A stretch of 64,000 nt of DNA from an uncultured Clostridia bacterium (GCA_947628115.1 CANQYS010000002.1:3689-67688); one strand, 5' to 3'; positions 1-3,307 are shown, counted from the stretch's first letter. Numbers and translations: made by a program. Notes: generated by a model from the sequence alone, not told the origin.

Positions 1-986
1 CTATTACATTCAAAAATCATACCTAGCCATTCTTTATACGTATCATTCTCGTCATTATATGTATCGCCTATTGAAACACCAACCACTGATCCAGAAATAC
101 CGTCACCCGAAAAATCAGGTGCTGAATCATCACCTTTACACCATTTTTTATCAATTAACTCATTACCATCATACTTATCAGCCCCACTCCATACATAACG
201 ATACAGATACCAACCCGATGAATCTGATTCCACAATCTCAGTATCACTAATAGAAAATGGAATTCCATAAATGAAAATACAATTTGAAAAAGTATTACAT
301 CCATCCGGATTCATAAATATAATTATCCAAAGTATGTTTAATTGATTATCTTGTACAACAACCTGCACATTTTTCATATCTTCAGGCTCAGTTTCTGGTA
401 AATTATCAAATGTTACGTTTGTCCATTCATCTCCTACATGTATTCCATGATGTTCATTAACAGGTTCTTTAAATGCAGTTATACCCATTTCTTCTAACCA
501 GTTTTGTTCTGTTTTACTTGTTACTTGATCATCTTTGTAATATAAAATTCCATTAGAAACAGTTAGTTTATCTTTATATTTTTCTTTTAAACTATTTGAT
601 ATATCTAAGTCATCTAATGTAAACTTATATTCTTTTGGAATATTTCCACTATTTTCTGCAATTTCTATTGCCTTTTCTACTTCTGCTTGCTCTTGTATTT
701 CACTAATTTCTGTTTGATATGTTGCTTTTTTTGCTTTTTCAAATAATCCTCCATCTAATGCTACATTTATTGTTACTCCTACTAGTATTAACATTACAAT
801 TATTGTAATTATTAGGGCTATTAATGTAATTCCTTTGGGGTCAGAAGTTAGTGTTTGGATTTTGGAATTCGGATTTGAGTTTGCCACTGGAGTATTTTTA
901 GTATGTTCTCTGAAGAGCGGGCGGACAGGGCCGTCCGCCCCTACAGTGTTTGCAATAGCTTTATTATAAGTTTTTAATTTTAACAT
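1..986 (-). CDS. Pilin-like N-terminal-helix protein with 52-aa leader; 3' end lies off-window
   Basis: My translation of the minus strand from ATG 986..984 (GGGAG RBS about 9 nt upstream) stays open to nt 1: MLKLKTYNKAIANTVGADGPVRPLFREHTKNTPVANSNPNSKIQTLTSDPKG-ITLIALIITIIVMLILVGVTINVALDGG... It is missing from the ORF track only because there is no stop in the window. Confidence 0.6.
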   Translation of the reverse strand, partial: MLKLKTYNKAIANTVGADGPVRPLFREHTKNTPVANSNPNSKIQTLTSDPKGITLIALIITIIVMLILVGVTINVALDGGLFEKAKKATYQTEISEIQEQAEVEKAIEIAENSGNIPKEYKFTLDDLDISNSLKEKYKDKLTVSNGILYYKDDQVTSKTEQNWLEEMGITAFKEPVNEHHGIHVGDEWTNVTFDNLPETEPEDMKNVQVVVQDNQLNILWIIIFMNPDGCNTFSNCIFIYGIPFSISDTEIVESDSSGWYLYRYVWSGADKYDGNELIDKKWCKGDDSAPDFSGDGISGSVVGVSIGDTYNDENDTYKEWLGMIFECN

Positions 987-1039
987 ATGTGTTTTCTCCC
1001 TTCTTTTGTTTTTTTTACTTTTATTTTCTATTTATGTGT

Positions 1040-1068
1040 ATTATAAGTTATATATTTTTCTTTGTCAA
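1040..1068 (-). promoter_or_regulatory. Sigma-A type promoter of the gene at 1..986
   Basis: Minus strand TTGACA (1068..1063), 17-nt spacer, TATAAT (1045..1040). The same promoter/5'UTR module recurs upstream of 1481..3307. Confidence 0.5.
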
Positions 1069-1204
1069 TTAGATTTTCATTTTCTAATAAAGCAAAATTA
1101 TATAAATTTTCTTTATTGATATTATCATATGCCTCTTTATTTTTTAATAGTTTTTATGTTTATTTATAAATATATATTTTTGTTATTCCTTCTTTGTTTA
1201 TATT

Positions 1205-1300
1205 TTACATTTCTAATTTATGTTTTTTGCGGGCAGGCACAAGGCCTGCCCCTACAACGTTTGCAGTTATTTTAGTTTTTCGGAGTGTTATTTTGAACAT
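1205..1300 (-). other. Orphan leader-like mini-ORF (31 codons) without a pilin body
   Basis: Minus strand reads MFKITLRKTKITANVVGAGLVPARKKHKLEM*. It contains the same ATTGCAAAC..GTAGGGGC + GC-hairpin module (GGGCAGGC/GCCTGCCC, 1231..1251) as the leaders of the two flanking genes. Confidence 0.25.
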
Positions 1301-1353
1301 TGTACGAACTTTGTCGATTTAATGAAAATTTTTAAATTTTCATTAAATTTTTA

Positions 1354-1417
1354 AAAGCTAAAACAATTATTTTTTGACAAATGAGCATTCATTTTCAAAA
1401 AATAATGTTTTAGCTTT
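1354..1417. repeat. 64-bp palindromic terminator-like repeat, copy 1 of 3
   Basis: AAAGCTAAAACAATTATTTTTTGACAAATGAGCATTCATTTTCAAAAAATAATGTTTTAGCTTT. Near-identical copies at 26522..26583 and 32240..32303. It sits just downstream of the stop of 1481..3307. Confidence 0.7.
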
Positions 1418-1480
1418 ATATATAAGTTATTACAGTAATAAACTTATTATTTATACTTTGTTTTAAAGTTTTTCAATATT

Positions 1481-3307
1481 TTAGTCAAATATAGGATATC
1501 CATCTTCTCCCATTTTCCAGTGTTTCCATCTTTCATTTGTTCCTATATTTTTATTTAAATTTTCTTCTATAAATTTCGAATTATCTTTTATTTCTATTGC
1601 TGTTATCCCCTCTGAGGTTGCTCCTATGCTATTTGACTTTGCTCGTTCATAATATGTGTTTTTTATATTTGTAACTGTATTTGTAGACTGATATTTTAAT
1701 ATAGTGCCTATAATCGCCTTGTCACTTTCTCCTGCATTATAACAATTTTCAATATTTAGTGTTATCTCTTTACATACATTTCCCTGAGTACCAACTAATC
1801 CTGCATCTTTAACCTTTCCTAAATTATAGCTATTAGCTATTGTTAATTCCAATACAGCACTCCAAGCAGCCCCAGAAAAATTGCCAACTAAACCACAATT
1901 ACATTCTCCTACATTATAGCAGTTTAATAACTTGCATTCACCACCTCTAATGAAACTGATGATTCCGCTTGAAGCTCTCCCATAATTACCACAACTAACG
2001 ACAGTTAAACTCGTATTGGTTCCTCCACCTACAATACCACCATCGCTAACATCTCCATAATTAATGCATCTTTCAACTTTACCTGAACTAGCAAAACCTA
2101 TTATTCCTCCAGATGAAGCATATGCATAAGCTGCCCCAGTTCTAGTAATTGTCCCATAATTTTTACAATCTATTATTTCAACATTACACCAATCTACAAT
2201 GCCACCAACCATGTTATATCCTGTTATATCTGCATAGTTTATACAATTGCTGATGTTTGGGTTTCCCTCCCCTGATGAAATTCCAGCTGCATGCCATGTA
2301 TTGTTTATAATTGTTCCACTTATACGAAGGTTTTTTATATTTTTTCCTCCAATAAATAATGCTAAAGACTTATAGTTAATGTTATTATACATATAAATAT
2401 TTTGTATTGTATTTTCTTTTCCATCAAATGTTCCCTTAAATCCATTAATTGGGAGAAATCCTATACACCCTTCTTCTGTTTTAGTCAATTCTGTTTTTAT
2501 ATCTTCTACTGTCCCATCTTTATTTAAGTCTCCATATTTTGTTTCTGTATAATCATTATATGAAAATATTGATTTGAAATCTAATGTTCTCGTTAATATT
2601 ACATCTTTCCCTGAAAAATTATTTGATTTTAATCCTAAATCATTATTTCCGCCATTTGTCATTATTGAAAATGCCACTAGGTCCTCTATGCACGCTACTT
2701 GAAATGGTTTATCTTCACTTCCATCATATTTTCCACCTTTACTTATATCTCCTGCATATTCATCTACTACTCTTTCTATTGGTCCAGTTATATTTCCATA
2801 TTCATCTACTTCAAATGAATTTTGGCTTGGACTTGTGTATGCTCCATTACTTCCTGTCCATCCTAAATCTTGCATAGTTTTATCTAATTGATCAAAATCT
2901 ATTATTCCATCGTTATTCATTGATCCTACTACTGCTAAAAATAGTTGCTCTCTATCTACTTCTTTTTGTGTTTGTTCTGTGGCTGTTTTTGCTTTTTCAA
3001 AAAGTCTTCCATTTAATGCTATATTTATTGTCACTCCTACTAATATTAGCATTACTATTATTGTAATTATTAATGCTATTAATGTAATTCCTTTGAGGTC
3101 AGAATATAGTGTTTTGATTTTGGAATTTGGATTTGAGTTTGCCTCTGGAGCATTTTTAGTATGTTCTTCGAAGGTCGGGCGGACAGGGTCGTCCGCCCCT
3201 ACATTTACAGTAGATTTTGTACTGATATTTTTTGTATGTGGGTAACCTAAGGGTGCGATCCCTACGGCATTTGCAATTGTCTTGTCATTTTTTTTTAATT
3301 TTGACAT
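1481..3307 (-). CDS. Large pilin-like N-terminal-helix protein with Gly-rich GLUG-type repeats and a 73-aa leader
   Basis: 608-aa ORF. KGITLIALIITIIVMLILVGV helix after the leader. C-terminal half has repeated GGI(V/I)G / AGLVG / CGLVG motifs typical of GLUG beta-helix repeats. RBS AAAGGA upstream of the ATG. Confidence 0.65.
   Translation of the reverse strand: MSKLKKNDKTIANAVGIAPLGYPHTKNISTKSTVNVGADDPVRPTFEEHTKNAPEANSNPNSKIKTLYSDLKGITLIALIITIIVMLILVGVTINIALNGRLFEKAKTATEQTQKEVDREQLFLAVVGSMNNDGIIDFDQLDKTMQDLGWTGSNGAYTSPSQNSFEVDEYGNITGPIERVVDEYAGDISKGGKYDGSEDKPFQVACIEDLVAFSIMTNGGNNDLGLKSNNFSGKDVILTRTLDFKSIFSYNDYTETKYGDLNKDGTVEDIKTELTKTEEGCIGFLPINGFKGTFDGKENTIQNIYMYNNINYKSLALFIGGKNIKNLRISGTIINNTWHAAGISSGEGNPNISNCINYADITGYNMVGGIVDWCNVEIIDCKNYGTITRTGAAYAYASSGGIIGFASSGKVERCINYGDVSDGGIVGGGTNTSLTVVSCGNYGRASSGIISFIRGGECKLLNCYNVGECNCGLVGNFSGAAWSAVLELTIANSYNLGKVKDAGLVGTQGNVCKEITLNIENCYNAGESDKAIIGTILKYQSTNTVTNIKNTYYERAKSNSIGATSEGITAIEIKDNSKFIEENLNKNIGTNERWKHWKMGEDGYPIFD

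Follow-up and report, generated by a model that had tools for sequence, protein, structure and literature searches.

The question raised by this locus is why two pilin-like genes should carry leaders of 52 and 73 codons, built around a GC-rich hairpin that is also found between genes. The genes lie at one end of a 64,000-nucleotide stretch from an uncultured Clostridia bacterium (GCA_947628115.1, CANQYS010000002.1:3689-67688); this whole 64-kb stretch, with a GC content of 26%, is called the window here, while L numbers denote related genomic loci or contigs and P numbers denote homologous proteins. The explanation we favour, with somewhat better than even confidence, is that the long leaders are translated N-terminal extensions, which would have arisen by in-frame capture of repeats resembling repetitive extragenic palindromes (REPs) in prepilin leaders.

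A six-frame scan of the window found four hydrophobic helices of the type (G/A) followed by ITLIALIITIIVM, all on the minus strand, with leaders of 7, 13, 52, and 73 residues. The motif KG/ITLIALIITIIVMLILVGV is present in all four genes, and the 20-residue helix is invariant in 30 aligned homologs, with Gly or Ala at -1 and about 20 hydrophobic residues. In genes 1 and 2 this invariant KG/ITLIALIITIIV helix is preceded by the open leaders of 52 and 73 codons. The genes and their signals are as follows.

1..986, minus strand: pilin-like gene 1, leader ATG at 986; cut by the window edge, complete (352 aa) in L002 5814-6872
831..986, minus strand: leader of gene 1, 52 codons, MLKLKTYNKAIANTVGADGPVRPLFREHTKNTPVANSNPNSKIQTLTSDPKG; frame 0 open, four stops in each other frame
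756..830, minus strand: hydrophobic helix of gene 1, ITLIALIITIIVMLILVGVTINVAL, conserved, after the putative G/I cleavage site
1040..1068, minus strand: promoter of gene 1, TTGACA-17-TATAAT, 12/12 matches
1481..3307, minus strand: pilin-like gene 2, 608 aa, leader ATG at 3307; identical protein on contigs from two samples
3089..3307, minus strand: leader of gene 2, 73 codons; frame 0 open
3364..3393, minus strand: promoter of gene 2, TTGACA-18-TATAAT, 12/12 matches
48111..48365, minus strand: operon pilin, 84 aa, with the 7-residue leader MMKGQKG and the same helix
59627..61570, minus strand: pilin-like gene, 647 aa, with a 13-residue leader and the same helix

The two long leaders had been proposed in an earlier sequence-only reading of the window, and all of their coordinates check out. 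The same holds for its claim that they start at ATGs with good ribosome-binding sites (RBSs): RBS-like GGGAGA and AAGGA lie 8-10 nt 5' of the leader ATGs, and each gene has in addition a promoter with 12/12 consensus matches, about 47-50 nt upstream of the RBS and ATG. An alternative start codon near the helix had been denied altogether. This is true of gene 2, where no ATG, GTG, or TTG with an RBS occurs between leader ATG and helix, but in gene 1 a single in-frame GTG precedes the helix by 19 codons, without an RBS and without conservation in gene 2. Region 1-3500 is 100% identical between two contigs independently assembled from two European Nucleotide Archive (ENA) samples, so the region of genes 1 and 2 is not an assembly artefact.

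Frame 0 is open throughout both long leaders, and the other two frames contain 3-5 stops; only 3.3% (gene 1) and 1.4% (gene 2) of dinucleotide-shuffled leaders are open. Leader indels preserve the frame (63 nt in gene 2, 24 nt in P0008) and bring in no stops, and all eight leader copies from a genomic scan are in frame 0. The leaders could instead be 5' untranslated region (UTR), with translation starting at a non-canonical codon near the helix, or with the genes unexpressed and the open frame fortuitous; we consider this very improbable. The repeat module described below truly lies in the 5'UTR of relatives (L006, L010, L024, and L053), and the frame from hairpin to ATG is open there too; such A/C-rich, T-poor sequence seldom makes stops. 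A previous survey also warned that many N-terminal intragenic REPs are annotation artefacts (PMC3733652). In those relatives, however, a strong RBS is followed by an ATG that precedes the helix by 6-31 codons, and genes 1 and 2 have neither past the leader ATG; instead, the consensus promoter, RBS, and ATG of both genes sit exactly at the head of the open frame. This frame is open in only 1-3% of composition-matched shuffles and is kept by indels, and open reading frames (ORFs) of 352 and 608 codons are intact in DNA of 26% GC.

The repeat module in these leaders consists of a TGCAAA box, four nucleotides, a GTAG head, a GC-rich hairpin of 8-9 bp, and an A/C-rich tail, which follows about 35 nt after the hairpin and reads GCAAACTCAAATCC(G/A)AATTCCAAAATC(C/A)AAACAC. 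Its copies in the two leaders are the following.

910..960, minus strand: REP-like module in the gene 1 leader, TGCAAA 949-954, GTAG 941-944, hairpin 919-940; covariance match 33 bits, E 3e-6
846..880, minus strand: repeat-unit tail of gene 1, GCAAACTCAAATCCGAATTCCAAAATCCAAACAC, encoding ANSNPNSKIQT
3168..3215, minus strand: intact REP-like module in the gene 2 leader, GTAG 3199-3202, hairpin 3177-3198; covariance match E 0.02
3231..3281, minus strand: decayed first module in the gene 2 leader, TGCAAA 3270-3275, GTAG 3262-3265; covariance match E 0.008
3109..3135, minus strand: repeat-unit tail of gene 2

The hairpin GGGCGGAC-n6-GTCCGCCC is exact at 919-940 and 3177-3198, where zero occurrences are expected by chance; each copy folds with -18.2 kcal/mol, and the leader hairpin lies at least 46 nt past the ATG. 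For the head motif TGCAAAnnnnGTAGGGGC, the window has five copies where 0.11 would be expected (937-954, 1248-1265, 3258-3275, 16478-16495, and 52728-52745). As the sequence-only reading stated, the longer leader holds the module twice. The two GTAGs are 63 nt apart, and the hairpin of the upstream copy has decayed. This decayed module lies inside the 63-nt in-frame extra block, has a broken stem of the GGGATCGCA type, and folds with -10 kcal/mol, no better than shuffles; an intact version of the same stem allele is present in L007 and L009. Four paralogs and a non-coding copy at L002 7128-7165 share the tail of gene 1 almost unchanged. When intergenic copies alone were used to build a covariance model, the resulting model matched the leader copies in the window as well as those in L003, L007, L009, L083, L087, and L088 (25-59 bits in the related loci). 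The proposed homology of the leader tail to the intergenic elements at 16451-16601 and 52452-52500 stands in part: AATTCCAAAATCCAAACAC matches them at 16-19 of 19-22 nt, above shuffles (z about 3-5), but over short segments only. A 13-mer at 34526..34538, also put forward as a link, is weak evidence and sits in an unrelated local palindrome. That palindrome, GATTTGAGTTTGC...GCAAATCTCAAAGG at window 34500-34560, looks like an unrelated hairpin.

Other identities for the leader hairpin were considered. An intrinsic terminator was rejected, with no T-run and an empty terminator scan, and a riboswitch, CRISPR repeat, or intron was rejected on size, architecture, and the lack of a model match. Rfam gave no relevant family, either at gathering thresholds over the whole window or in E-value mode over 700-3500 and L009 4000-5100. 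No exact match to the leader tail was found in the JGI metagenomes, the source being an ENA assembly.

Outside the leaders, the same module is found in intergenic DNA; the window as a whole holds eight module copies.

16451..16601, no strand: intergenic inverted doublet of two GTAG hairpins, REPIN/MITE-like (MITE, miniature inverted-repeat transposable element), GTAG at 16488 (+) and 16552 (-), bounded by inverted repeats AAATTGTAGTTTGT
52452..52856, no strand: 405-bp composite element with the same terminal inverted repeats, between spoVAC and spoVAD, GTAG heads at 52531 (-) and 52735 (-)
1200..1290, minus strand: orphan module between genes 2 and 1, with ATGTTCAAAATAACA.., TGCAAA box, GTAG, and hairpin 1231-1251; reads as a 31-codon ORF without an RBS

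Its relatives were sought in 80 loci encoding the same helix, taken from species-representative genomes; all but four of the records are titled uncultured gut Clostridia or Clostridium (including CAG:440, CAG:343, and UBA1742), and the exceptions are two Erysipelotrichaceae and two Bacillota. In about 680 kb of related loci, 38 of 100 GC-rich hairpins bear the GTAG head. The family consensus is TGCAAA-n4-GTAG-GGGnnnnn-loop-nnnnnCCC, and all leader and intergenic copies share GTAG-GGGnnnnn...nnnnnCCC, with several stem alleles (GCGGAC, GCAGGC, GTCGCA, GCAGAT, GCGATT, and others). Across 26 different modules, Watson-Crick pairs account for 82% of cases at the variable stem positions 4-8, against 39% in an arm-shuffled control (maximum 55% in 2000 shuffles). 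Of the 42 modules detected in 15 loci, 40 belong to pilin 5' regions or to intergenic DNA elsewhere, and the two scored as coding appear to be spurious ORFs or chance matches; counted per kb, pilin 5' regions hold 2.4 modules, the remaining intergenic DNA 0.9, and the remaining coding DNA 0.015. Because the enrichment of pilin 5' regions over other intergenic DNA is modest (about 2-2.6x) and the sampling is biased, some loci having been chosen through their leaders, no specific association with pilins is claimed.

Some modules stand alone; others form a direct array (L009) or inverted doublets (L013, L080, and window 16451). The array at L009 4150-4390 has four GTAG modules with a period of 60-65 nt and alternating stem alleles; it comes after rpmE and before a pilin-like gene that carries two such modules in its own leader, and each of its intergenic modules runs into a stop in frame 0 (the GTAG frame) within 14-23 codons. 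The inverted doublets of L013 and L080 are located between housekeeping genes, as checked by the flanking ORFs, and the hairpins at 52531 and 52735 are antisense to the spoVA operon.

A second repeat family is bounded by terminal inverted repeats AAATTGTAGTTTGT...GGGGAATTCTAGGGACTGTCC and occupies, among other sites, the spacers between the spoVA operon genes (window 16451-16601, 37322-37393, 52452-52856, 53910-54018, and 54425 onward; L083 near 3211 and 10837; L085 near 5725 and 10985), and two of its copies carry nested GTAG hairpins. The 405-bp element has a GC-richer core of about 170 nt (window 52530-52700), without an Rfam match. A 16-nt exact piece of this second family, ACTGTCCTGAATTTTC, is translated in the predicted leader of P0009 (L087 about 2060-2080).

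The peptide VGADGPVRP is nothing more than the palindrome translated. In a comparison of genes 1 and 2, codon differences in the leader are 3 synonymous and 14 nonsynonymous, against 6 synonymous and 1 nonsynonymous in the next 25 codons, which form the helix. With the N-terminus of gene 2 as query, a protein search gave 664 homologs; among the 120 matches listed, 36 have leaders of 16-70 residues, and many of these long-leader homologs contain N(A)N-VG[AV]....[RDA]P, which is the palindrome in the frame GTA GGG. Their leader peptides covary as the palindrome requires (VGAD..VRP, VGVA..GDP, and VGAG..PAQ). In an AlphaFold model of gene 1, residues 1-49 are predicted as disordered (pLDDT <50) and a confident long helix occupies 50-111. 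These comparisons show a leader whose frame is maintained and whose amino acid sequence is unconstrained. Such a pattern would be expected for read-through sequence whose product is discarded; translation from the upstream ATG and cleavage at G/I we infer.

The sequence-only reading had left two directions open, either exonisation of a repeat or derivation of the intergenic elements from the leader, and had suggested surveying the leader length of genes with this helix. Short leaders dominate: the 119 helices in the 80 related loci, an unbiased genomic set, mostly follow leaders of 5-16 residues. Because most family members have such short leaders, the long ones represent the derived state, with the repeat exonised; the presence of modules at unrelated intergenic sites of several genomes favours the same direction. 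The opposite account, in which the long leader is an old functional pro-peptide, the repeats spread outward from it, and the intergenic copies are debris of pilin-gene 5' ends, appears improbable. It fits only two copies, those following pilin genes: the orphan module at 1200-1290, behind gene 2, and a non-coding copy that spans the whole leader unit, behind gene 1 (L002 7020-7165). Both begin at an ATG homologous to the leader start, and both lie in the tandem pilin-like array, as gene remnants would; the second ends in TAG exactly where the genes run on into KG-ITL. In contrast, the modules of L009, L013, L080, and window 16451 and 52452 have no start-codon, tail, or helix homology and occur in both orientations and as inverted doublets, and neither the dominance of short leaders nor the unconstrained leader peptide agrees with an old pro-peptide.

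Among relatives, the module lies on one or the other side of the start codon. The module with its post-stem sequence (C-CTTCGAAGAA-) is inside the leader ORF in L003, L007, and L009, and the same combination is in the 5'UTR, ahead of a strong RBS and ATG, in L006, L010, L024, L030, and L053; the ATG of such relatives precedes the helix by 6, 8, 10, 23, and 31 codons in L010, L024, L053, and L006. The source genome encodes two further long-leader paralogs, P0001 with a decayed stem and P0008 with the stem deleted, the latter by deletions of 17+7=24 nt that keep the frame. In P0002 (L088), the ortholog of gene 1 from another sample, the leader holds two intact hairpins at a spacing of 63 nt. The first of its modules is the counterpart of the window orphan 1200-1290; the second departs from the window copy in a compensatory replacement of G-C by A-T, with Cys in place of Arg (GGGCAGAC/GTCTGCCC in L088, GGGCGGAC/GTCCGCCC in the window). 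In the P0009 group (L087), the hairpin lies five codons past the ATG.

The 5' cassettes of genes 1 and 2 are 85-91% identical while the remainder of the proteins is unrelated, which suggests duplication or recombination at the cassette. A flat identity of about 88% over promoter, 5'UTR, leader, and helix had been given before; the measured values are 84.6% for the leader, 90.7% for the helix, and about 90% for promoter and UTR. The related proposal that this similarity offers a substrate for recombination between pilin-like genes gains indirect support from the shared cassette of otherwise unrelated genes and from module numbers that vary among paralogs and strains. A duplicate of the gene 2 3' flank also follows gene 1 (window 1290-1420; L002 6900-7170), with two AT-rich palindromes followed by ATGTTCAAAATAACA.. 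and a GTAG module; the pilin-like genes thus make up a tandem array of cassette units.

According to the scenario we propose, REP-like repeats populate non-essential DNA, and members of the family would have entered pilin-like genes in frame, past the start codon but ahead of the site of prepilin cleavage (KG/I). The leader would stay cytoplasmic and then be clipped by prepilin peptidase, for which one candidate is encoded in the window.

47254..48027, minus strand: prepilin peptidase (A24_N_bact, E 3e-31), presumed leader-removing enzyme

Because the leader would be cytoplasmic and cut off, its sequence and length should be almost unconstrained. For prepilin peptidases, only the glycine at -1 is known to be critical. 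The prepilin leader would thus be the one coding context that tolerates such repeats, and therefore frame-keeping, stop-free copies could survive and leaders could reach 46-73 residues. The 5' cassette of promoter, UTR, leader, and helix would have been copied or homogenised among paralogs, with modules gained, lost, and decaying over time; how the repeats themselves spread, too, we infer. The repeats are probably selfish or neutral and tolerated in a leader that the neighbouring prepilin peptidase would remove.

The candidate peptidase belongs to a type IV pilus cluster at 42-51 kb, which also encodes a T2SSE ATPase (E 3e-100), a split PilT-like gene, T2SSF, and the operon pilin 48111..48365; the peptidase, T2SSE, and T2SSF matches exceed their cut-offs, and the PilN- and PilO-like matches in the cluster are sub-threshold. 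The label "pilin-like" is based on the N-terminal motif and on this adjacent cluster with its prepilin peptidase, not on a family-model match. In the AlphaFold model of gene 1, the confident part comprises helices 50-78 and 81-111, followed by a small alpha/beta unit to about residue 170; mean pLDDT is 60, and half of the model is of low confidence. A sequence search of the PDB returned Geopilin only, at E 0.19.

Several points weigh against the capture of repeats in true prepilin leaders. Pfam and NCBIfam gave no family above threshold for the pilin-like proteins and no match at all for genes 1 and 2. With N_methyl (PF07963) the operon pilin reaches 19 bits, short of the 21.2 cut-off, and the mature N-terminus I-T-L-I-A has Ala at +5, not the usual Glu, in all four proteins. 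Foldseek found no match in the PDB at E <= 0.001 for the gene 1 model, whose mean pLDDT is the 60 given above. Both the translation start and the cleavage are read from sequence only, and the figures for open frames and orientation carry less weight than they seem to, because paralogs are not independent. No significant tblastn match to a RAYT (REP-associated tyrosine transposase) or Y1 transposase was obtained in about 750 kb of loci with IS200 TnpA and E. coli RAYT queries; a weak match in L044 was rejected, as there is no ORF there. Finally, most leader-borne hairpins are still intact, and all modules at pilin 5' ends are in sense orientation; the intact stems, together with the compensatory change in the gene 1/L088 ortholog pair, could mean that the hairpin is selected rather than neutral.

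A selected hairpin would be a cis-acting RNA element of pilin-like mRNAs, placed in the 5'UTR or the leader, with its translation a side effect; it might act as a 5' stabiliser, as a site for an RNase or an RNA-binding protein, or as a translational modulator. We regard this as unlikely, although several observations agree with it. In 10 genomes or more, pilin-like genes carry the module at their 5' ends, always in sense and, overall, with at least six stem alleles, and its density there exceeds that of other intergenic DNA as given above; in L006 the hairpin lies about 15 nt past the -10 box, near the transcript 5' end, and stems are kept by compensatory changes even within a leader. On the other hand, modules are common at non-pilin sites (after rpmE, between housekeeping genes, and antisense to spoVA at 52531 and 52735), and the spacing from promoter and ATG is not conserved. 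The hairpin is decayed in P0001 and in the first module of gene 2 and deleted in P0008, and these genes stay intact; stem mismatches show no asymmetry, with 8 G-T against 7 A-C and thus no G-T excess. Regulation of translation by the hairpin, raised in the sequence-only reading, gains no particular support, the hairpin lying at least 46 nt past the ATG. The enrichment itself is subject to the choice of some loci via their leaders, and the sense bias could equally reflect a replication-strand bias of insertion. A further idea, which seems quite unlikely, is that the GTAG hairpin unit may serve a large pilin-signal surface-protein family as a specialised cassette for 5' control and recombination. 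The stem, which compensatory changes maintain even where it is translated, would set mRNA stability or translation rate across the family, and the shared promoter-leader-helix cassette would let cells swap or redeploy C-terminal domains by homologous recombination. If this were true, prepilin leaders of 50-70 residues would be a functional feature.

In its architecture, the module resembles the GTAG-tagged REPs, which have been surveyed together with bacterial interspersed mosaic elements and REPINs (Di Nocera et al. 2013, PMC3733652; Nunvar et al. 2010, PMC2817692). As in those, GTAG directly adjoins an imperfect, GC-rich palindrome some 20-25 nt long, the stem exists in many variants that differ by compensatory changes, and copies occur as intergenic singles, arrays, and inverted pairs and occasionally within ORFs, especially at N-termini, where GTAG REPs are often found and often suspected to be annotation artefacts (PMC3733652). 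Unlike GTAG REPs, the present modules have a conserved TGCAAA box 4 nt upstream of GTAG, their arrays are direct with a 60-66 nt period and not alternating, and some copies are nested in elements with terminal inverted repeats. The host also differs from the surveyed ones, being an uncultured Clostridia of 26% GC; the terms "Firmicutes" and "Clostridi" are absent from PMC3733652 and PMC2817692, and "Gram-positive" is also absent from PMC2817692.

The position of the leader copies invites comparison with three other systems. The class III leaders of type IV prepilins are alike in having a basic leader that ends in Gly at -1, an invariant hydrophobic helix, and prepilin peptidase and assembly genes nearby; they differ from the present proteins in leader length, in Glu rather than Ala at +5, and in being matched by pilin models at threshold. 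Type IVa prepilin leaders have about 5-7 residues and type IVb leaders about 15-30, and we know of no prepilin class with leaders as long as 46-73 residues. Beyond this short range (about 5-30 residues) lie the leaders of 52 and 73 residues in the window and those of 46, 54, and 70 residues in P0008, P0001, and P0002. Neisseria Correia elements are miniature inverted-repeat elements that are co-transcribed with genes and can change transcript structure. Like them, the present repeats are small and non-autonomous and lie beside or within 5' regions, and the elements at 16451-16601 and 52452-52856 have terminal inverted repeats, AAATTGTAGTTTGT...ACAAACTACAATTT; the leader copies, unlike Correia elements, have none.

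Rickettsia palindromic elements (RPEs), reportedly described by Ogata and colleagues in 2000, are said to be inserted in frame in protein-coding genes. They are likewise palindromic selfish repeats in frame in ORFs, tolerated at permissive parts of proteins, and here too the repeat lies in an ORF without a stop or frameshift and would be translated. RPEs differ in lying inside mature proteins, presumably in surface loops, whereas the leader here is expected to be cleaved, and the two have no sequence relation. RPEs are also discussed in the REP survey cited above (PMC3733652). Our literature search found no paper on palindromic repeats in prepilin leaders, a search for unusually long prepilin leaders gave nothing relevant, and a text search for the helix motif returned optical character recognition noise only.

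In-frame REPs and Rickettsia RPEs are thus already known; the host lineage, the TGCAAA-GTAG module with its 60-66 nt direct periodicity, and residence in a cleavable class III leader are new. GTAG-type REP-like repeats are hereby extended to AT-rich gut Clostridia, a lineage absent from both surveys (PMC3733652 and PMC2817692), and the locus may offer a natural example of where selfish palindromic repeats can live in genes, namely in a discarded signal leader. If translated and cleaved, these would be the longest prepilin leaders known to us, and the peptidase would accept very long, arbitrary leaders, which could be useful for secretion-tag engineering. For annotation, 'VGADxxVRP'-type peptides in gut metagenome proteins should be read as translated repeats, not as conserved domains.

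Two minor observations concern other parts of the window. Three genes are split into two ORFs each, encoding the PilT-like T2SSE ATPase (43442-44546), a class 3 fructose-1,6-bisphosphatase (3493-5467), and a glycosyltransferase (9959-11147); these are either real frameshifts or errors of the assembly, which has a coverage of about 4.7x. A hairpin AGGCGGAC-TATAAT-GTCCGCCT at 30788-30809 lies between co-directional genes and has no GTAG head; it may be a terminator or an unrelated palindrome.

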